From Candidatus Latescibacterota bacterium (lineage in GTDB: Bacteria > Latescibacterota > UBA2968 > UBA8231): a DNA stretch of 64,000 nucleotides. A program made the position numbers and the translations under genes. The stretch is taken from positions 1,024,001 through 1,088,000 of the forward strand of contig OZ242005.1 in NCBI GenBank assembly GCA_965204725.1, written 5' to 3'. The stretch's first letter is position 1. The number at the start of each line of letters is the position of its first letter. The notes under the pieces were generated by a model. The model searched no databases. It was given only the letters and a program-made list of their open reading frames with translations, and was not told where the DNA came from. Below are positions 1 to 34,493 of this stretch, piece after piece.

Positions 1-356
1 GACATCCGGTGGCCGGTTATAGCTGGGAGGGTTTTGCCGTGGAGCAGTTTGCCGCTGTGCTGCCGCTTGGATGGGAACTGGCCTTTTGGCGCACGGCGAC
101 CGGCGCAGAAATTGACCTGCTCCTGCTGCACGGCAGTCACCCGATCATCGCGGTCGAAATGAAGATGAATACCACCAATCCCCGCCCCGGTAGAGGGTTT
201 TACGAAGGGTGTAAGGAGCTGGCCCCGCGTGAAAAGTGGGTCATCTACCCCGGCGACGAGCCCTTGGCCCTGCCCAATGGGGTGTTGGCCCTGCCGTTGG
301 CTGAGGCTGTAGAGCGGTTTGTGTCTATCGCTCGGGGCGGTCGCCATCAGCCCTAG
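1..356 (+). CDS. 3' end of an AAA_14/DUF4143 ATP-binding protein (partial, starts before the window)
   Basis: Open from the window edge. HPVAGYSWEGF and FWRTATGAEIDLLL..VEMK are typical of the DUF4143 C-terminal PD-(D/E)XK-like region. Confidence 0.8.
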   Translation, partial: HPVAGYSWEGFAVEQFAAVLPLGWELAFWRTATGAEIDLLLLHGSHPIIAVEMKMNTTNPRPGRGFYEGCKELAPREKWVIYPGDEPLALPNGVLALPLAEAVERFVSIARGGRHQP

Positions 357-373
357 CGCGTCTGGCTCGACCA

Positions 374-3004
374 ATGACTGAACGCCCACGCCTCGCCGCG
401 CGCCTCGCGGGTGCCAGCCTGTTGCTCGGTGGCTTGGCCTTCAATCCGTTGGCCTTGGCGCATTTTTTTGCGGAGCCGCCGCTGGGCACTGAGGGGGTCA
501 TCGCCCTCCAGATTGCCTTAATCGTTAGCGGCGGTTGGCTCGTTTGGCGCGGCCCCCGGTTGCCGCTAATTCCCCTCGCGCTCATCGCGGTCGCCTTGGG
601 CGCACTGGCCCTGCTCGGGGGCTACGGCACGGCCCGCTCGCTGCAAAAGGTGCAGGACCGCAACCGGCTCTTGGCGACTATTGACCGCAGCGAACAGGTG
701 CAGCAGCACCTAAGCGGCGAGGTCCTGCCGCTGCTCGCCTTGGGGATCGCGGCCCCGGCGCGCTCGCTTTTTGCCGACACGGTTGTGGTCGCGGATGTGG
801 AGCAGATCGCCGAGGCGACCGAAGTCGTCCCGGCACTGGGCATTAAGCGCCAGCGCTGGGAAATTGCACCCGCCGAGCCGGTTTACGACGACGTCATCGC
901 GCTGTGGGGGCCGCTCTGGGCCGCACTGGATTGGCACGACTATGCGGCCTTCCATCTTGAGACCGGGCATTTCCTCGATGCGGAGGCCGCGATCTACCAA
1001 GCCCGCTTGCGCTTCGACGCCGCGGCGCAGACCAAAGGCGGGGAGCGTGCGCAAATTCGGGCTGGGCTGGTGCTGGAGTGGCAGCAGCAGGACGATGCCA
1101 CTTGGCGGATCCAGCGCTGGGAAACCGAATCGCTGGAGATGCTCACGCAGCCGCACACACTCTTTGCCGCAGCCCGCGACGAGGTGCTCCCCGCCCAAGC
1201 TCGGGTTTCGCGCCACGCGGCCTTGGTGCTCCAGTCGTTTCGCGACTCCGCGTTCATCGCCCCGCACCGCTATTTCACGCGCCAAGCCTTTGATCGCCAT
1301 CCCGGCGTCAGCGTCGTGGATATTGACGCCGACGGGTACGACGACCTGTACCTTGCCGTGCGCCAAGGTAGGAACATGCTGTTGCACAATGGCGGCGACG
1401 GCACGTTCACCGAGCGCGCGGCCCAATACGGCCTCGATGTGGAGCACCACACGGCCGCGGCGCTCTTCGCCGACTTTGACAACGATGGCGACCCGGATGT
1501 ATTCCTCGGCCGCACGCTCGCGCCCAGCCGCTACTTGGTCAACGAGAACGGGTGCTTTGCCCCCCGCGACTTGGGTGCTGACGTATTGCCGTTCCTCGTA
1601 GCCTCGATCTCGGCCGCCGATTACGACCGCGACGGGCTGCTCGATGTGTACTTCTCCACTTATGCGGCGCGGATGGTGCTCGACGCGGTCTCCACAGCCC
1701 CGCGCGGTGCGCCTTGGGGCGGTGCGCTGTTGGCCGACTTCCTGCCGGCGGACCGCGCTCGGGCACTCTACGATCTGAGCCGCGACCGCATCGGCCGGCT
1801 CATCCACGACGCGCCCGGACCGCCCAATGTCCTGCTACGCAACCTCGGCAACGGACGCTTCGCGCCCACGGTAGCCGGGTGGCGCAATACCTTACAGGCG
1901 ACTTGGGCCGATTACGACCGCGACGGCGACCCGGATCTCTACCTCGCCAACGACTTTGCCACCAACAACTTGCTTCGCAATGATGGCGGTGCTCTGGTTG
2001 ATGTCACCGCGGAGAGTGGGGCCGCGGACTTGGGCTTTGGCATGGGCGCGAGTTGGGCCGATTACGACGGGGATGGCCGCCAAGACCTGTACGTGACCAA
2101 CATGCACAGCAGTGCCGGTCGCCGCATCACGGCTGCGGCCGGGCCGGCCGGCGCGGCTTTTGCCCCGTTGGCCCGGGGTAGCTCGCTCTTGAGGAACAGC
2201 CGGGCGGGCTTCGTCCGGGTTGCGGATTCGCCGGTGGAGGACGGCGGCTGGGGTTGGGGCGGCCAGTTTTTGGACTTTGACAACGACGGCGACCTCGACA
2301 TCTACGCTCCGAGTGGGTACTACACCCCGCCGGCTGCCGTCGCTCTGCCCGAGGATACCTGAAGCCTGTTTTGGCGCACGGTCGTGCGCCATGGTCGGAC
2401 GGACGGGGCATACAACGTGGGAGCGCGGCTCGACGCGGGGGCCTCGCTCAGCGGCTACCAGCGCAACCGTCTATTCCTCAATGTAGAAGGCCGCGCCTTC
2501 CTCGATGTGTCGGGCTTGTCGGCGGCGGATTCGCCGGCCGATGGTCGCGCCTTCGCCACCTTGGACTTCGACCGCGATGGCCGCATTGACTTGGCGGTCG
2601 TCAATGCCAACGAGCCGCTCTGCGAATTGTTTGCCAACCGCAGCAAGGCGGGGCACTTCCTCGCGTTGCGCTTTGTCGGGGGCAATGACCGCGCCGCGCC
2701 CACGAGCACGTGGAGTGTGCGCGATGGCTATGGTGTGCAAGTGGAAGTGGATGTCGGCGGGAGGACGCTGCTGCGCGAGCACCGCGCCGGCGAGGGCTTC
2801 TCGGCCCAGAACAGCGCGACCCTAATTGTCGGCTTGGGCGCGCACCTACGAGCGGAGGCCGTGCGCGTACGCTGGCCTTCGGGGCGAATGCAGCGCACAA
2901 CCGACGTGGCGGCTGGGACGCTATTGACCGCGTACGAAGACCCCCGGCACTCGCCTACGGGTGCGGCGTTTGTGGTGGTGCCGTATCGCCCCGGCGAGCC
3001 GTAA
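374..3004 (+). CDS. Membrane-anchored FG-GAP repeat / ASPIC-UnbV (CRTAC1-like) protein with an in-frame TGA at 2360-2362; candidate selenoprotein (876 aa if read through)
   Basis: ORFs 374-2362 and 2384-3004 share a frame (offset 2010 nt). The 21 nt between them read SLFWRTV. The first part has N-terminal hydrophobic helices and DxDxDGxxD repeats. The second part has the last repeat and the ASPIC/UnbV domain (GEGFSAQNS, VRVRWPSG). Confidence 0.8.
2363..2391 (+). promoter_or_regulatory. Putative bacterial SECIS element
   Basis: Stem TGGCGCAC (2372-2379) pairs perfectly with GTGCGCCA (2384-2391). The loop GGTC (2380-2383) begins after a 17-nt gap from the TGA. Confidence 0.7.
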
Positions 3005-3116: not shown

Positions 3117-3437
3117 ATGTTCAAGGAATTAGACGCTATTGTGCTCACATCCGCAATTCCGCTTGAGCGCATTTGGGATATTCCACCCGGTAGCCCACTA
3201 AGCGAGAACGGCAGTCGAGGAGAAGGGCTGAAAGCCGGAGACGTCGGCACGATTGTATATATACAGGGTGATGGAGAAGCCTTTGAGGTGGAGTTCTTAA
3301 CGCCAGATGGCTACACAGTCGCTATTGCCACGGTCCTGCCATCGCAGGCTCGTCTAGCCACCGAAAAGGATCACGCCAACTACCGCTTTGGGAAGAATTC
3401 GCCCGCATATATAGCAACCCTACATCCTTCAAGATAG
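3117..3437 (+). CDS. DUF4926-like small protein
   Basis: AGGAGG RBS upstream. GLKAGDVGTIV...AFEVEF motif. Confidence 0.75.
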   Translation: MFKELDAIVLTSAIPLERIWDIPPGSPLSENGSRGEGLKAGDVGTIVYIQGDGEAFEVEFLTPDGYTVAIATVLPSQARLATEKDHANYRFGKNSPAYIATLHPSR

Positions 3438-3494: not shown

Positions 3495-6400
3495 TCAGCG
3501 AATCAACGCCAACTTAGCCGTTTGGACGGCATCGCCGGCTTGCAGCACGGCCCAATAGACCCCGGACGCGGCCTCTGCGCCCGCCGCCGTGCGGCCATCC
3601 CAGCGCACTTGGTGCCATCCGGCTTCCGCCCAGCCATCGGCCAACACGCGAATGGGCTGGCCCATCAGGTTATAGACGGCAAGCCGCACGGGACTGGCGG
3701 TAGCGACGGCAAAGGGAATGGTCACTTCGGCGTTGAACGGCGCGGGAAAGGGATCGCCTAAACCGGATACCAGTTCATCCGGTAGCTCAGACGGGAATCG
3801 CGTATCGGCGACCCGCTTGGCATTGGCCGGTCGCCGCGACGTCACAGACACATCTTTCAACTGCCATCTATCAAAAGATGAGGTGCGGTCTTGGTTGAAG
3901 AAATTGCGGAACTCGATGATGTTTGTGCCGGATCGTAGGTCTGTTCTCTCCAAGGGGAGATACCAATCCGTCCAATCCTCGCTCGCTGACGGCGTGGTGT
4001 ATAGCTCTTCGTTGAGAAAAATGTCCACTTCGCCATCACTTATTTCTTTTAATGAAAAGTAACAATAGAGCTCGCGACTAGTCCCTTCGTCAAAGCCAAA
4101 CTTGACGCTTTTGGGATTTTTGCTAACCGCTGGTGGACTGTAGCCGAAAAGCCCTCGGCTCGGAAGGGGCTCTACCGACTCGCCTTCGATTTCGAGACGC
4201 TTCGTCCCGGATGTCCCATTCGAGGTCCTAACCCACACATCGCCGCTCTGAGCCTCATCTGGAACCTCGACGACAATTCGGCGGTCCGACCAACTCACAT
4301 AGTCCGCACCAGAAGGCCGTACACTAGAGAAAAACAAAACGTATCCCGTGCCGCGGCTGGAGCCGAAATTACCACCCGTGAGCGTGAGACGATCTCCTGT
4401 TGCTACACTCGTCGGCGAGATGTTCGTCAGATACGGGCTTGTTATGTTCAAGCGGATGAAATTACTGGTGCCTTCTGCCGTTCTAACGGTCAGGTTGCCG
4501 GGCGGCGTATTGCGGGGTATGCGAAATCGGATCGTTCCATTCGTCCAAGAGGTGAACGAAGTGATCGCGGTCGAACCAATCCGCACGGAGCTGCTCCCCC
4601 GTGAGGAACCGAAGTTACCCCCGCTTACAGTAACAATGGTATTGGTCCTTGCGGTCTGCGGAGAGATGCTACTGATCCAAGGCGCGGTGCTTCCGATTTC
4701 GAGGTGCTTCGTCTCCGACGTCCCATTTGAGGTCGTAACCCGCACATCGTCGCTCGGAGCCTGATCTGGAACCTTGACGACGATTCGGCGGTCCGACCAA
4801 CTCACGTAGTCCGCAGCAGAGGCCCGCACAGACCCAAACAAAACGTACCCCGTGCCTCGTCTGGAGCCGAAGTTACCGCCCGTTAATGTGAGACGATCTC
4901 CCGGTTGTACGTGCGTCGGCGAGATCCTCGTCAGATACGGGCTCGTTATTGCTAAGCGGATGGAATTGCTGGTGCCTTCTGTCGTTCTGATCGTCAGGTT
5001 GCCGGGGGGCGTATTAAGGGGAACGCGAAATCGGATCGATCTACTCGACCAAGAGGTGAACGAAGTGATAGTTACCGAACCAATCCGTACAGAACTGCTC
5101 CCCCGAGAGGAACCGAAATTCTCTCCGCTTACGGTAACAACGTTATTGCTCCTTACGGTCCCCGGGGAGACGCCGCCGATCCAAGGCGAGGTAACTGTCA
5201 GCCGCGCCGTGTCGCTTCCGTTCGTCGTTACAACCTGTAGATCGCCGGTACGCGCTCCCGACGGCACTCGCACTCGGATCTGAGTATCGCTCCAGCTAAC
5301 ATAGTGGGAAGCACTAGGCATCTTACCCCCGAAGAAAACCACCCGGCTTGTGCCCCGATTCGCGCCGAAGGCCCGCCCACGGATAGTTACGACTTGACTG
5401 TACCGCACCCGGCTAGGCGATATGGAAGTAATTTGAGGAGAAGTAACTTGAGGAGCCTGCATAACCGGCAGTACGAGTTTGCCGTATCCAAAAGTATTGT
5501 CCCTTCCCCGAGGGCCTATGTCAACCGTTGCCTCGACCAGCGCGTCCCACAAATCGTCACGTGAATACGATGGATTAGCCGACTTGATTAGAGCCGCCGC
5601 GCCAGCGACGTGGGGCGCAGCAGCGGAAGTCCCAGTATAGCCATAAAAAACCTCCGACTCTCCATAAGAAGCTGTCGATACTCCACTAGGCGCGACGAGT
5701 TCGGGTTTGAAGCGGCCATCGGTGGTGGGACCGCGCGAGCTGTAGTCCGCAATTATGCCCAAGTCGTATTCGTCGAAATGGACCGCCCCGACGCTCATGG
5801 CCCCTCGGGCATCCGCCGGACTCCCGATACTGTTCTCCGCCACCGAATACTTTTCAAAATCGTGATTAAGCGACCATATTTTTAGCCTTCTAGGCCGGGC
5901 GTCGTTCTCGCTGCGAACAGAAATCTCGTACTTTCCCGATTGCTCTGCCTTGATTTCGATTCGTTCTACAGGGATATGGCTACTGAGATCTCTTTGAGGA
6001 TCGATACTGTAAGCCACAAATTCGAGATCGCCGGAGGGGTTCACAAAATCGAGGTACAAGTCGTAGTCCTCGCGGGAAGTGGGCCAATCATTCCACGTCA
6101 AGAAAATCCTTATCTCTTCCCCTTTCTCCGCTTCAATCCCTATCCCTTGGTCTTCTCCGCTAAAGTTCTGCCAACCGTCATCATCGGAATCAGACCAAAA
6201 CCCGTAGTAATGGCTCTTTGCGTCATTGCCCGCTGCATCTACCCAGAGAATGCCCTTATCTGCGGCGTCATTTACAATGTCGCAGGCTATTCCTCGCCCG
6301 TCGCCAATGCCGGTTCCAAACCAGCCCAGGGAGTGATTGATTATGTCAATCCCCTCTCGTATGCAGAAATCCTTGGCATTCTCCAAGTCAAGCAGATCGT

Positions 6401-7100
6401 CCACCTTCAGAAGCGTGAGTTCGGCTTCCGGTGCCACATCGTAGATAATCTCGGCACACGCCGTGCCGTGGACATCCTCGCCAGCGTATATCCCCTCGTC
6501 CGTATAGTCGAAATACCGCCAAGTCGCCGGCATGTCTGGCCCTAATTGGTCCGCCCCCTTAAATCCTCCGTCAATAACGGCCACCTTGACCCCTTGGCCT
6601 CTGACGCCTGCATTGTAATTATTTATAGAGTTGATGAGTCGCCGACCTTCGCTCCAAGTCTGTTGCGTGTGCGGCCGGAACGGTCGGCGGACAAAGCTCA
6701 CCCCCGGCAGTTCCGACACCGCCAACAACGACGACGCCGGAACCGAAACCCGCATCAAACTCTTGGACTGCGCCAACACCTCGACGCCCAGTGCCGCCAT
6801 AGACGACGTATCAATCGACGCCGACGCTTGCCCGCGCTGGGGAACCAAAATGACGACGACCGTATCCTCAACGCCTCCCGCACGAGTTAGCTTGCCCGCT
6901 GGCGGCACGGCCAACTCCCACAACGCACTCTGTATCTTGGCCGGGCCGTCGGGCTTGACCGGGGCAGAGTTTAGGTCCTGTCCCCAAAGGGGTACATAGC
7001 CGAGGACGCCCAAGAAAAGGGCGGTCATAACTTTACTGCGGAAAACGACTTTACGAGTACTCATATTGATGGCCTTCGCTGAAGTTAGGGGTTTTGACAT
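3495..7100 (-). CDS. Secreted S8 subtilase with about 5 IPT/TIG repeats and a C-terminal FlgD-like/T9SS-like domain
   Basis: Catalytic triad motifs VAVIDGGF, HGTACA and GTSAAAPHVAG. Repeated P.I..ISP...G.NFG...WSD units. C-terminus PAPFNAEVTIPF...AVYNLMGQ..WDG...ASGVY. Confidence 0.9.
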   Translation of the reverse strand: MSKPLTSAKAINMSTRKVVFRSKVMTALFLGVLGYVPLWGQDLNSAPVKPDGPAKIQSALWELAVPPAGKLTRAGGVEDTVVVILVPQRGQASASIDTSSMAALGVEVLAQSKSLMRVSVPASSLLAVSELPGVSFVRRPFRPHTQQTWSEGRRLINSINNYNAGVRGQGVKVAVIDGGFKGADQLGPDMPATWRYFDYTDEGIYAGEDVHGTACAEIIYDVAPEAELTLLKVDDLLDLENAKDFCIREGIDIINHSLGWFGTGIGDGRGIACDIVNDAADKGILWVDAAGNDAKSHYYGFWSDSDDDGWQNFSGEDQGIGIEAEKGEEIRIFLTWNDWPTSREDYDLYLDFVNPSGDLEFVAYSIDPQRDLSSHIPVERIEIKAEQSGKYEISVRSENDARPRRLKIWSLNHDFEKYSVAENSIGSPADARGAMSVGAVHFDEYDLGIIADYSSRGPTTDGRFKPELVAPSGVSTASYGESEVFYGYTGTSAAAPHVAGAAALIKSANPSYSRDDLWDALVEATVDIGPRGRDNTFGYGKLVLPVMQAPQVTSPQITSISPSRVRYSQVVTIRGRAFGANRGTSRVVFFGGKMPSASHYVSWSDTQIRVRVPSGARTGDLQVVTTNGSDTARLTVTSPWIGGVSPGTVRSNNVVTVSGENFGSSRGSSSVRIGSVTITSFTSWSSRSIRFRVPLNTPPGNLTIRTTEGTSNSIRLAITSPYLTRISPTHVQPGDRLTLTGGNFGSRRGTGYVLFGSVRASAADYVSWSDRRIVVKVPDQAPSDDVRVTTSNGTSETKHLEIGSTAPWISSISPQTARTNTIVTVSGGNFGSSRGSSSVRIGSTAITSFTSWTNGTIRFRIPRNTPPGNLTVRTAEGTSNFIRLNITSPYLTNISPTSVATGDRLTLTGGNFGSSRGTGYVLFFSSVRPSGADYVSWSDRRIVVEVPDEAQSGDVWVRTSNGTSGTKRLEIEGESVEPLPSRGLFGYSPPAVSKNPKSVKFGFDEGTSRELYCYFSLKEISDGEVDIFLNEELYTTPSASEDWTDWYLPLERTDLRSGTNIIEFRNFFNQDRTSSFDRWQLKDVSVTSRRPANAKRVADTRFPSELPDELVSGLGDPFPAPFNAEVTIPFAVATASPVRLAVYNLMGQPIRVLADGWAEAGWHQVRWDGRTAAGAEAASGVYWAVLQAGDAVQTAKLALIR

Positions 7101-9601: not shown

Positions 9602-10852
9602 CTAGCTCAAAAACCACGCAATCGGCACGGCCGTAATCCCCTCAGCTAACGCCTGAACTCGCCCATCGTTGGACAGTACGAGGGCATGCAATACGGGTTT
9701 GTCGAGAATATCTTCCAATCGCCGCAGGTGACGGGCATCGCCCGCGGCGACCTGTTCGGTCATTTTGATTTCGATGGGAATAAATCCGGCCTCGGTTTCC
9801 AACAACAGATCGACCTCCCGTCCGTCGGCGGTGCGCAGATGGTGCAAGGTCACCGGCAGGCGGCTGTTCTTAATTTGCTTGTAGATCTCGGCAATCACCG
9901 CGCTTTCAAACTCGCCTCCCGTAGGCAAACCGCGCCGACCGAGCAACGCACGTTGCACCCCCGGATCGACAAAGTGGACCTTGGGTGCTTTGGACAAGCG
10001 CTTCTGCATATTGCGAAACCAAGGCTGGAGCAAAATGATCTGATAGCTGATCTCCAAATAGGTTACAAAACGCTTGGCCGTCTTGGTTGCAATCCCGGCC
10101 TGATTGGCCAAATTGGCCAGATTTAAGAGGCCGCCGGTCATCCCGGACAGGGCTTTTTGCGCCCGCACAAAAGGTTCCAATTCTCGCAAGTTGGCCAAGT
10201 CGCGCACATCGCGCTGGATATAGGTCTGGATGTAATTGGCTAGCCACTCGTATTTCTCGGCGGCGTTTAGGGTTTCGTCTGCCAACGCCGGCATGGCCCC
10301 AAACTGCAAATAGTCGTCCAACAGTTGGCGCACCCGCGCATAGCGCGTCTCTTGCCTTGGCATCCCCCACAACATGTCAGCGGGCGTCCCGCTTCTGAGC
10401 CATTCAATCAGGCGCGATTCGGCCACGGGATCGCGCCACGATTCGGTCAGCATTTCCGCAAACGTCAGCGGATATAGTTCGACCAAAGAGACCCGTCCGG
10501 CCAAGCTCTCGCGGATTTTTTCTATCAACAGAATTTGGCTCGATCCCAAAAGGATGTAGCGCGCATCGTCATACAGATCATAGACCGCCTTGATTGACTC
10601 TACCAAGCGGGGGGCCTTTTGCACCTCGTCGAGAATCGCCACCGGATACCGTTGTCGCCATTGCGCGGCCGATAGGGCTAGAAAATCAGGTCGCACGACG
10701 GGATCCTCCAGCGAGAGATACGCATACTCGGCAAAGCCGGCTCGCACGAGCGTGGTTTTACCCGTTTGCCGCGCCCCGGTCAGCACGATGATTCGCCCGA
10801 ACTTGGACGCTGATTTTTGTTTTAGATCGGGAAGTAAGGCTCTGTTTTTCAC
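9602..10852 (-). CDS. AAA_14/DUF4143 ATP-binding protein
   Basis: Walker A GARQTGKT, Walker B ILDEVQ, ESLAGR and EVDLL..IEIK. Start placed at GTG 10852. Confidence 0.9.
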   Translation of the reverse strand: MKNRALLPDLKQKSASKFGRIIVLTGARQTGKTTLVRAGFAEYAYLSLEDPVVRPDFLALSAAQWRQRYPVAILDEVQKAPRLVESIKAVYDLYDDARYILLGSSQILLIEKIRESLAGRVSLVELYPLTFAEMLTESWRDPVAESRLIEWLRSGTPADMLWGMPRQETRYARVRQLLDDYLQFGAMPALADETLNAAEKYEWLANYIQTYIQRDVRDLANLRELEPFVRAQKALSGMTGGLLNLANLANQAGIATKTAKRFVTYLEISYQIILLQPWFRNMQKRLSKAPKVHFVDPGVQRALLGRRGLPTGGEFESAVIAEIYKQIKNSRLPVTLHHLRTADGREVDLLLETEAGFIPIEIKMTEQVAAGDARHLRRLEDILDKPVLHALVLSNDGRVQALAEGITAVPIAWFLS

Positions 10853-10928
10853 GGTAGGCCCCTTTTGGGCGTAAAATCGGGCATTAAGGCCATAATTTAC
10901 GCCGAATAGAGGCGCTAGCAAGGTGGGG

Positions 10929-32643: not shown

Positions 32644-34245
32644 TCAAGGCTCGCGGACGGTCAGGAGCTGATCGGCTGCGACGTCGTACAAGCGTTGGAC
32701 GCGGCCGCTGGGCCAGCGGATTTCTACCTCGTCGGCGCGGGTGCGGTCGCCCAACCCGAAAAACGGGCGCGGCGCGCTTTGGCATAGGTAGCTCGACCCA
32801 GCGCGCACCACGTCCCACCACACGTGGTCGCCCGCAGCGACGCGGACCTCGGCCCCGATGGAGTCCCCGACCAACCGCAAGCTCAAATAGTGCTGGGCAT
32901 TGCCGCCGTCGTTGCGCAAGAGCGCGGCGGCTTGGTTGTTGTTGGCGACGATAATGTCGAGGTCGCCGTCGTGGTCGTAATCGCCCATGGCCGCGCCGCG
33001 GCTGACTTGCTGCAACCGCAGGCCCGGCCCCACCTGATTGCTCACGTCGGCGAAGCGCCCTTGCCCCTGATTGCGGAAGAGTTGGTTTTGCTGCGCGTAT
33101 GTCACCGCGTCGAACAAGTGGATGTTGTCGTCGAGGTGCCCGTTGGCTACAAACAAGTCGCGGTTGCCGTCGTTGTCGTAGTCAATGAAGAGGGCGCCCC
33201 ACGCGAGGAATTGCAAGCTCGGAACCCCCAATCCAGCCTGAAAGGTCACGTCGGCGAAAAACCCATTGCCGAGGTTGCGGTAGAGGCTGTTGGTTTCCCA
33301 CTGGTAGTTGGTGACAAAAAAGTCAAATCGGCCGTCGCCATCGTAGTCGCCCACGTCAACCCCCATGCCCGCCAGCGGCTTGCCCGCGTCGTTATAGGCG
33401 ACCCCGGCCAACGCGCCGACCTCGGCAAATCGGCCCCCGTCGTTGCGGTAGAGCAAGTTGGGGGTGCGGTCGCCGGCCGCGTACAAGTCGAGATCACCGT
33501 CGCCATCGTAGTCGATAAAAAAGGCCCCTAGTTCCTTGGCGGCCTCTGGGAGCAACCCAACCTCTGAGGTGACATCGGCAAAGGTGGCGTTGCCTTCGTT
33601 GCGATAAAAGACATCGCGCTGCGGTTCAAAAGCCTCCGGCCCGCAGTACACCGCGATCCCGCCGGCGCGGATGCAGGGCTGATGTATTTCGGGACGAAAC
33701 TGGGCGTAATTGGCCACGAAGAGATCTACGTCGCCGTCGCTGTCGTAGTCGGCAAAGGCCGCGCCCGTACTCATCGCGGGGTTGACTAAGACCGGCCCGG
33801 CCACGCCGGCTGCGTCGGTCGCATCCGCGAATTGGCCGGTGCCGGCATTGCGGTAGAGGATATTGGGGCCGTACGCGGTGACGTACAAGTCCAAGGTGCC
33901 GTCGCCATCGTAGTCGGCCGCGGCACAGCCCAGCCCGTAGCCCGAATGGGCCACGCCGGCTGCGTCGGTCGCGTCCGCAAACCGACCCGTGCCCTCGTTG
34001 CGATAGAGTGCGGCCGGGCCGGCGCTGTTGACGAAGTACAAGTCGAGCCACCCATCGGCATCAAAGTCGGCAAAGGCCGCGCCCGAGCCCATGGTCTCCA
34101 TGGGGTACTTTTGCCCTTGCGCCCCGTTTTGATGGCGAAAGGCGATCCCAGCCTCGGCCGTCACCTCGACGAATTGCACCTCGGCGCGGCCCAACGCGGC
34201 CTGTAGGCAGGCGAAAGCGGCTCCTAAGAGGGCGCGTCGCGTCAC
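32644..34245 (-). CDS. CRTAC1-like FG-GAP / ASPIC-UnbV protein
   Basis: GTG start overlaps the upstream stop (GTGA). FVEVTAEAGIAF.H, ETMGSG, DxDxDG repeats, GSSYLCQS and IRWPSG. Confidence 0.9.
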   Translation of the reverse strand: MTRRALLGAAFACLQAALGRAEVQFVEVTAEAGIAFRHQNGAQGQKYPMETMGSGAAFADFDADGWLDLYFVNSAGPAALYRNEGTGRFADATDAAGVAHSGYGLGCAAADYDGDGTLDLYVTAYGPNILYRNAGTGQFADATDAAGVAGPVLVNPAMSTGAAFADYDSDGDVDLFVANYAQFRPEIHQPCIRAGGIAVYCGPEAFEPQRDVFYRNEGNATFADVTSEVGLLPEAAKELGAFFIDYDGDGDLDLYAAGDRTPNLLYRNDGGRFAEVGALAGVAYNDAGKPLAGMGVDVGDYDGDGRFDFFVTNYQWETNSLYRNLGNGFFADVTFQAGLGVPSLQFLAWGALFIDYDNDGNRDLFVANGHLDDNIHLFDAVTYAQQNQLFRNQGQGRFADVSNQVGPGLRLQQVSRGAAMGDYDHDGDLDIIVANNNQAAALLRNDGGNAQHYLSLRLVGDSIGAEVRVAAGDHVWWDVVRAGSSYLCQSAPRPFFGLGDRTRADEVEIRWPSGRVQRLYDVAADQLLTVREP

Positions 34246-34493
34246 GCGCGCTCGGAGTCGCCGGCGGCTTCGCTGGCCCCGCGACCGGCGACCATGTTGC
34301 GGATCATCTGGGCCACGTCGCCAAAGCCCTTGTACGCGACAGCGATGACGATGCCGTAAAAGAGGACGCTGGCGACGATAAAAACCACCTGCCAGACCTC
34401 GCGCCAAGGCATCAGCCTAAGTTCGATGTAGGCCGCCACACCCACGAACAGCAGGGCGAAGCGGGCAATGTCTTTCCAGCGTTGGGCTTCCAT
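34242..34493 (-). CDS. Small 2-TM membrane protein, probable SSS transporter partner
   Basis: Two hydrophobic helices. Tightly coupled to both neighbours. Confidence 0.7.
   Translation of the reverse strand: MEAQRWKDIARFALLFVGVAAYIELRLMPWREVWQVVFIVASVLFYGIVIAVAYKGFGDVAQMIRNMVAGRGASEAAGDSERA

Follow-up and report, generated by a model that had tools for sequence, protein, structure and literature searches.

Does the TGA at positions 2360–2362 of a bacterial DNA stretch end a protein, or does it encode selenocysteine (Sec)? The stretch, hereafter the window, measures 64,000 nucleotides and comes from Candidatus Latescibacterota bacterium (GenBank assembly GCA_965204725.1, contig OZ242005.1, positions 1,024,001 to 1,088,000). 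The triplet closes an open reading frame (ORF) of 662 amino acids (374–2362), and a second ORF (2384–3004) follows in the same frame, its GTG start being located within the 3' arm of a hairpin. Once the TGA is read as U, the plus strand features from 374 to 3004 a single frame of 876 residues with no further stop, and U is residue 663 in the context ..ALPEDT-U-SLFWRTVVRHG... The initial annotation of the window, made from the sequence alone, had viewed the two ORFs as one frame broken by the TGA only, and had proposed that they make a selenoprotein; direct reading of the sequence agrees on the frame. We favour the interpretation that 374–3004 is one gene for an outward-facing, CRTAC1-like selenoprotein, in which UGA 663 is decoded as Sec by means of the hairpin and takes part in presumptive Sec-thiol chemistry, and assign to it a probability of roughly 0.85. 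The narrower statement that residue 663 is Sec is, on comparative grounds, highly probable. The gene belongs to a widespread family, found in several phyla and apparently undescribed.

Conservation of the TGA was analyzed in 24 other genomes of the same genus, searched by translation through stops. Exactly one TGA is found over the full-length match in the 19 best matches (81–86% identity) and in the ortholog of genome G024 (66%). The G015 ortholog (70% identity) carries one TGA and one TAA, that of G017 is split into two matches, the second of which holds one TGA and one TAG, and no full-length ortholog was found in G016 and G018 in this search. In all 23 aligned genus-level sequences the TGA occupies one alignment column. 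The portion past the TGA is conserved no less than the rest, identity over the last 406 residues being 87–91%. The triplet, whose confirmation in raw reads had been advised, is present also in contigs assembled from four public runs of four studies: TGA and hairpin are identical to those of the window in all, and two of the contigs depart from the window elsewhere in the 2200–2560 interval, at 7 and 9 positions. The search of sequencing runs listed no RNA run.

The same column holds TGA in six more distant relatives, which share 37–39% identity with the window protein over the C-terminal 406 residues. Four of them, from the same genus, make up group B and read KDT-U-SLFWRHV; two, from another family, make up group C and read PDG-U-SCVWQAV. 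Other phyla were scanned with the family alignment against one genome per species. The 80 loci listed from named metagenome-assembled genomes (MAGs) are a sample, and none is from the genus of the window. TGA marks the Sec column in 19 of the 80, within the motif D-[LT]-U-S-x-[FLY]-W-R-x-V-V. The hosts are labelled Gemmatimonadetes, Akkermansiaceae/Verrucomicrobiales/Roseibacillus, Mariniblastus/Pirellulaceae/Planctomycetota, Ca. Multivorans, and Acidobacteria/Vicinamibacteria/Pyrinomonadaceae; one is a 'Proteobacteria' MAG. Within the motif, D661 never varies, and W667 is shared by 90% or more of the alignment rows. Neither TAA nor TAG was found at the Sec column in any homolog examined. The stop is TGA in 48 of the 48 interrupted forms listed, and the downstream part is in frame in the aligned genus-level, distant and other-phyla forms. 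Conservation of the TGA, proposed as a test, holds at each of these distances. A frame offset at the site, named beforehand as an outcome contrary to Sec, is not a general feature; only the G017 ortholog, matched as two pieces, departs from the pattern. In one Pirellulaceae MAG (locus L068) the Sec codon is immediately preceded by a Cys codon (D-C-U-S-F-F-W). CU dipeptides are listed for several catalogued selenoprotein families (PMC13188914).

The hairpin is separated from the TGA by a 9-nt spacer (2363–2371), and is made by a 5' arm TGGCGCAC (2372–2379), a GGTC loop (2380–2383) and a 3' arm GTGCGCCA (2384–2391). The stem is perfect and measures 8 bp, and the loop begins 17 nt past the UGA; stem, gap and loop are exactly those described in the initial annotation. 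According to the legend of Fig. 2 in PMC13188914, the bacterial Sec insertion sequence (bSECIS) model requires loops of 3–9 nt, stems of 4–16 bp and a G in the first two loop positions, together with a spacing of 16–37 nt and an energy of -7.5 kcal/mol or lower. The hairpin of the window falls within all these limits (GGUC loop, 8 bp, spacing 17, -14.3 kcal/mol), and is the most stable candidate hairpin in the whole gene. In a scan restricted to perfect stems the model is passed by 42 of 48 TGA forms, in comparison with one of 13 non-TGA forms. The background level is given by the window gene itself, in which 90 of 852 in-frame positions pass (10.6%). A match to a bacterial SECIS model, which had been suggested as a check, is thus found for the window hairpin and for most TGA forms. 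The hairpin taken alone is weak evidence, because its energy is ordinary relative to dinucleotide shuffles of the local 67 nt (z = -0.41) and because of these 90 background positions. The z value is not significant, and therefore fold energy was not used as evidence. A scan of the 2250–2500 interval against Rfam, at E up to 10, returned no SECIS family and a chance TarB match only (15.3 bits); the presence of a bacterial SECIS model in Rfam was not checked, and nothing is drawn from this result.

Constraint on the hairpin sequence is a different matter. Among 22 orthologs, synonymous codon diversity is lowest, in a total of 868 eight-codon windows, at codons 666–673 (0.097, the gene mean being 0.28). 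The sole codon of the hairpin which varies in these orthologs changes from CGC to CGT, replacing a G-C with a G-U pair. In distant TGA forms the hairpin is retained with different sequences, in two registers which differ by 1 base. Two sets of distant forms were analyzed. In the first set, which includes 15 TGA forms (group B and four phyla), 91.4% of the stem is paired, in comparison with 82.4 ± 1.7% in shuffles; none of 500 shuffles reaches the observed pairing, partners slid along the sequence are 25–72% paired, and the covariation score is 0.318 vs 0.130. One pair of this set occurs in four forms (CG in 5 sequences, GU in 5, UA in 3, GC in 2) and is never unpaired. One partner is the wobble base of a conserved Arg codon, and the other opens a codon which may read Pro, Ser, Thr or Ala; protein coding alone would not give this pattern. 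In the second set, made by 12 TGA forms, the signal is weaker (90.6% paired, two pairs with one compensatory change each; 17 of 500 shuffles). Compensatory changes, which had been indicated as a test of the hairpin, are found in both sets. As judged from the alignments, the hairpin is conserved far beyond chance. It fits the SelB-type model, its small loop starting with G[G/U] 17–21 nt past the UGA.

The machinery needed to decode UGA as Sec is encoded by the genome. The tRNA-Sec (70 bits) is called SeC, anticodon tca, by ARAGORN, and selA (563 bits), selB (351 bits) and selD (374 bits) were identified; all four genes, sought on the suggestion of the initial annotation, score over the curated cut-offs. 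The selD gene (G000:C1:3670414–3671337, plus strand, locus L019; TIGR00476 match, 374 bits) features one in-frame TGA; therefore selenophosphate synthetase is itself a selenoprotein here. The selA gene is over the cut-off in 18 of the 19 other-phyla genomes carrying a TGA form. Nothing in the recoding apparatus departs from the bacterial standard. The tRNA-Sec model also matches G000:C1:3573138–3573223 (minus strand, locus L002) at 47.2 bits, the gathering score being 47, and a further match of 41 bits resides 25 bases away; both probably denote tRNAs with a long arm, those for Ser or Leu for example.

Pfam recognizes FG-GAP_3, FG-GAP and UnbV_ASPIC domains in the read-through protein, the latter entirely past the UGA, as the initial annotation held; NCBIfam models gave no matches. 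The elements of the gene are collected in Table 1.

Table 1. Elements of the gene interrupted by the TGA, in window coordinates
Feature	Position	Strand	Evidence
Coding sequence, 876 residues + TAA stop, TGA at codon 663	374..3004	+	ORF reading; full-span orthologs with 66–86% identity
Hydrophobic N-terminal helices, residues ~4–84, presumed membrane anchor	383..625	+	AlphaFold2 helices, low pLDDT
FG-GAP beta-propeller, residues ~311–760, DxDxDG calcium-loop motifs	1304..2653	+	Pfam, AlphaFold2 model, structure match
UGA codon 663, proposed Sec codon, motif D-x-U-x-x-x-W-R	2360..2362	+	Column conserved across genus, distant relatives and other phyla
SECIS-like hairpin, loop GGUC	2372..2391	+	Fold, synonymous constraint, covariation, published bSECIS model
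Cys750 (EPLCELF), candidate resolving thiol of group A	2621..2623	+	Cys in 22/22 group-A orthologs
UnbV_ASPIC domain, residues 785–852, all past the UGA	2726..2929	+	Pfam PF07593, E 4.7e-15

The AlphaFold2 model obtained from an alignment of 38 sequences (predicted local distance difference test, pLDDT, 88.9; predicted template modelling score 0.87) starts with N-terminal hydrophobic helices, which are followed by a long helix, a beta domain (133–266), the propeller and the UnbV/ASPIC domain. The N-terminal helices (4–23, 25–30, 38–59, 65–123) have low pLDDT. U663 is the first residue of a helix (663–671; pLDDT ~91). The best match among solved structures found by Foldseek is murine CRTAC1 (9etn_A, E 1.9e-26, template modelling score 0.71 on the target); the others are generic propellers. 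Relatives feature signal peptides, or lipobox-like and lipoprotein-like N-termini. Hydrophobic N-terminal helices, signal peptides and domain types together suggest that the family is exported, and that the window protein is anchored to the membrane, outside the cytoplasm.

In the genus of the window, the read-through search gave dozens of matches per genome to FG-GAP proteins. One paralog, to which the initial annotation had compared the interrupted gene, is encoded in the window itself by a minus-strand ORF (32644–34407, 587 aa; seven FG-GAP_3 and one UnbV_ASPIC domains). It contains no TGA, and in a BLASTP alignment (30% identity) the Sec segment stands opposite a shorter, gapped stretch between DLFVANGHL and QQNQLFRN; that the matching position would be a loop was correctly noticed. 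Several other matches to the UnbV/ASPIC part, located in frames of 535–633 aa, are flagged as holding one TGA (for instance G002:C1:1256197–1256649, G013:C1:58943–59395, G003:C69:67495–67980, G015:C197:20817–21314, G023:C1:1366061–1366531). The flags could denote frame-end stops, or further recoded sites in paralogs.

Residues found at the Sec column in uninterrupted homologs provide a view of the function. Searched with a profile, 1.84 billion representatives gave 329,497 matches at E <= 0.001; the best 150 were examined, and more were added by a word-index search. In those of the matches examined which are uninterrupted and carry the D-x-X-x-x-x-W motif, the Sec column is mostly occupied by Glu, Ser, Asp or Ala, and by Cys in four only (P0019, P0119, P0124, P0165). 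Two paralogs (L051, L052) also have Cys, in the context QDY-C-TTFW, and the Sec/Cys pairs anticipated by the initial annotation therefore exist. In the table combining all sources the counts are E 61, S 17, D 15, N 7, T 4 and Q 3; Ala, Gly, Met and Leu also occur, Arg is found once and Trp never in the sense-codon homologs tabulated.

A second thiol element accompanies Sec in most of the family. Outside group A, to which the window protein belongs, nearly all TGA forms extend past UnbV_ASPIC into a thioredoxin-fold domain (AhpC-TSA/Redoxin in Pfam) with a CxxC motif, and some of them also carry TPR repeats. In these fused forms Sec resides in the propeller, ~270 residues upstream of the CxxC domain. 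The association was counted, in the combined sources, in proteins with at least 330 residues past the site, by looking for CxxC 200–340 residues downstream. The motif is present in 17 of 17 Sec forms and in all three Cys forms, and in 17 of 105 forms with other residues (Fisher p = 2e-13, a statistic which ignores relatedness). Three residues of the domain, C835, C838 and P905, the latter being presumably the cis-Pro of the thioredoxin fold, are invariant in the 20 Sec/Cys forms. An Asn form (L063) and an Ala form (L064) keep the domain, but their motifs are SxxC and LxxC. TGA forms which have no thioredoxin domain feature other cysteines: U-x-C is found in L048, L049, L060 and L062, and Cys750 in group A. 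Besides U663, Cys750 is the only conserved Cys of group A, and is absent from the 32 other rows of alignment A4, which read F, S, L, H, V or I. In the Cys form L051, the Cys at the site is the sole cysteine. The thioredoxin-fold CxxC domain was not found in the window protein, whose last domain is UnbV_ASPIC. The redox or catalytic role put forward by the initial annotation is supported indirectly, through the association of Sec or Cys with a CxxC domain which is absent from the window protein.

These data can be accommodated in the following scheme. The SelA/SelB/SelD/tRNA-Sec system of the organism would decode codon 663 as Sec, the hairpin 2372–2391 acting as a bacterial SECIS which recruits SelB. 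The product would be a membrane-anchored protein made, in order, by the N-terminal beta domain, the FG-GAP calcium propeller and the UnbV/ASPIC domain. Sec, in the family motif D-x-U-S-x-[FLY]-W-R-x-V-V, would start a short helix, in a loop which forms an insertion in the last complete blade of the propeller. It may serve as a redox-active nucleophile, cycling through a selenenylsulfide with a thiol. Comparable redox relays operate in thiol peroxidases and reductases. The partner thiol would be provided in most members by the fused C-terminal TlpA/redoxin-like domain, with its CxxC and invariant Pro, in some by the Cys located two residues past Sec (U-x-C). In group A, which would have lost the thioredoxin domain, the partner is probably Cys750, or a protein acting in trans. 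The pattern of cysteines gives a relay between Sec and a thiol partner about even chances. The broader proposal is a new class of extracytoplasmic selenoenzymes, in which a CRTAC1-type calcium propeller with a Sec active site is served by a fused TlpA-like CxxC domain wired to the periplasmic reducing pathway; this is a tentative view, slightly less probable than the relay itself.

Several observations weigh against the selenoprotein interpretation, or reduce the force of the arguments above. Genus-level orthologs are not independent of one another. The fold energy of the hairpin is ordinary, as said; the SECIS model is loose, about 1 in 10 in-frame positions of this GC-rich gene qualifying, and 6 of 48 TGA forms fail it in the perfect-stem scan. 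The 5' arm corresponds to conserved Trp-Arg codons, and pairing is partly due to coding. An Asn form (L070) keeps a 9-bp stem at the SECIS position. Among genomes with a TGA form, G043 showed no selA. This gene is found also in 7 of 8 genomes carrying close non-Sec forms; therefore its co-occurrence with the TGA is permissive, not discriminating. Few forms have Cys at the site (5 in the combined table, vs ~120 in which E, S, D, A, N or others are found), which is unusual for a selenoprotein family. Sec is therefore not replacing a widely conserved catalytic Cys, and the classical Sec/Cys argument is weakened. The thioredoxin domain is missing from the window protein, and a search of its genome for this domain as a separate protein, made with that of L055, gave no clear copy (best match 27.8 bits, 25% identity). 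All the same, each of the contrary outcomes named beforehand was looked for and none was found, and the Sec interpretation is supported. The L070 locus, from a Ca. Sulfotelmatobacter MAG in which selA was not found, has AAT at the Sec column, and its hairpin (-12.2 kcal/mol) passes the SECIS model; a hairpin next to an Asn codon may be the trace of a recent Sec loss.

The alternative that survives best accepts Sec and changes its task. Sec could be a metal or substrate ligand, taking the place of Glu, Asp, Ser or Asn, and the CxxC domain could be a metallochaperone or metal reductase of the Sco/TlpA type. This is a serious rival to the relay, since Glu, Asp or Ser is what most often occupies the site, at a distance of two residues from the invariant Asp. 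Most uninterrupted homologs thus have a potential ligand residue following D661, the propeller is a calcium-binding fold, and the C-terminal domain of L061 scores also for SCO1-SenC. Ala, Gly, Met and Leu at the same site fit a ligand poorly, however, and the all-or-none link between Sec or Cys and CxxC, with loss of the first Cys of the motif in Asn and Ala forms, suits a thiol-selenol couple at least equally well. We regard the ligand role as unlikely, and Sec-thiol chemistry as preferable.

Far less probable is that the UGA is a conserved true stop. The locus would then encode a 662-residue propeller fragment and a 206-residue UnbV/ASPIC protein, made separately or by re-initiation at GTG 2384, and the hairpin would control termination or re-initiation. 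Gene callers do predict the split, 70 of 74 database entries end ..ED[TS], and the GTG lies inside the hairpin, 21 nt downstream. The split, however, would cut a propeller blade in two, the halves form a single domain in the model (pLDDT ~91 near the site), and each sense-codon homolog is one polypeptide. All 48 interrupted forms listed have TGA as the stop, always in frame with the downstream part, selA is found in all but one of the genomes checked, and spacing and loop of the hairpin are those of a SECIS. Equally improbable is read-through without selenium, stimulated by the hairpin, in which Trp, Cys or Arg would be inserted by near-cognate tRNAs. The residue inserted at a recoded UGA is undecidable from sequence alone, which leaves this explanation some room; against it are the full Sec system of the genome, the fit of the hairpin to the SelB-type model, and the residues of sense-codon homologs, never Trp and Arg once, those with Cys sharing the CxxC partner. 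A lone in-frame stop in an otherwise intact gene resembles a fresh nonsense mutation or a miscalled base, but a pseudogene or an assembly error is refuted: the TGA recurs in ~22 congeneric species, across several phyla and in the contigs assembled from four runs of four studies, and protein identity downstream is still 87–91%.

An ORF of 106 aa (3117–3437, plus strand) resides just downstream of the selenoprotein gene; it is conserved in five orthologous loci (75–84% identity), less in others, contains no CxxC or other cysteine motif, and offers no hint of the function. A 1201-aa protein encoded by the minus strand (3495–7100), convergent with the selenoprotein gene, features a subtilase S8 domain, five IPT/TIG stretches and a FlgD Ig-like domain. 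A DUF4143 fragment is found at 3–356 (plus strand), and a complete ATPase of the AAA_14 + DUF4143 type 9 kb away (9602–10921, minus strand). At locus L025, the frame upstream of the ortholog starts with a sequence resembling the DUF4143 ORFs of the window.

Proteins of group A are present in public databases as shortened products: 70 of 74 entries measuring 570–730 aa end ..ED[TS]. Near relatives are named by NCBI 'VCBS repeat-containing protein' (Gemmatimonadetes/Gemmatimonadota MAGs), and some 'CRTAC1 family protein'. The database entries seen stop at the UGA, and relatives in several phyla will be likewise cut. The catalogue of 119 prokaryotic selenoprotein families in Table 1 of a 2026 review (PMC13188914) has no FG-GAP, ASPIC, UnbV, CRTAC, propeller or VCBS entry, and lists none of PF13517, PF07593 and PF01839. 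A full-text literature search linking selenoproteins with FG-GAP, ASPIC or UnbV found nothing relevant. The main texts of BSepDB (PMC13326102) and deep-Sep (PMC12013277) report no such family, which their supplementary family lists could contain. The main text of the review mentions neither Planctomycetota nor Verrucomicrobiota (Gemmatimonadota was not searched for), and the family described here adds one more selenoprotein to these two lineages. A Sec residue in a beta-propeller loop, with a separate CxxC domain, widens the range of known Sec contexts. Selenoprotein families continue to be discovered; distinctive of this one are the Sec in a beta-propeller, the built-in CxxC partner, and non-Sec relatives with Glu, Asp or Ser instead of Cys. 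The ASPIC/UnbV-CRTAC1 proteins gain a testable active-site handle, made by a target residue, partner cysteines, and natural 'off' variants (Asn/Ala, SxxC/LxxC). If the proposed chemistry is true, it would be the first catalytic one for the ASPIC/UnbV superfamily, and the family would be a rare case of selenoproteins born by gain of Sec at a Glu/Asp/Ser position, not by exchange of Cys with Sec.

Three known systems can be compared. The CRTAC1/ASPIC-UnbV family, exemplified by murine CRTAC1 (PDB 9etn), shares Pfam domains and their order with the window protein. To our knowledge, neither Sec nor enzymatic chemistry has been described in the CRTAC1 family, and we know of no established biochemistry for the ASPIC/UnbV-CRTAC1 superfamily. 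The window protein differs in having a Sec-bearing helical loop in a blade and an N-terminal beta domain before the propeller, and most of its relatives add the thioredoxin-fold CxxC domain, sometimes TPR repeats. Formate dehydrogenase genes of E. coli feature, as the gene described here, an in-frame UGA followed by a stem-loop in the coding region, whose loop here starts with G[G/U] 17 nt on. The SECIS loop of E. coli fdhF is GGUC. The protein families are unrelated. The third system is provided by catalogued thioredoxin-fold selenoproteins; according to a passage of the review cited above, most characterised selenoproteins have a thioredoxin-like fold (PMC13188914). Relatives of the window protein resemble them in having a TlpA/redoxin-like domain, probably involved in periplasmic thiol-redox reactions. 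In the catalogued families, in contrast, Sec is part of the thioredoxin-fold motif itself (UxxC, UGC), whereas in the family described here an ordinary CxxC is found at that place, and Sec resides in the propeller.

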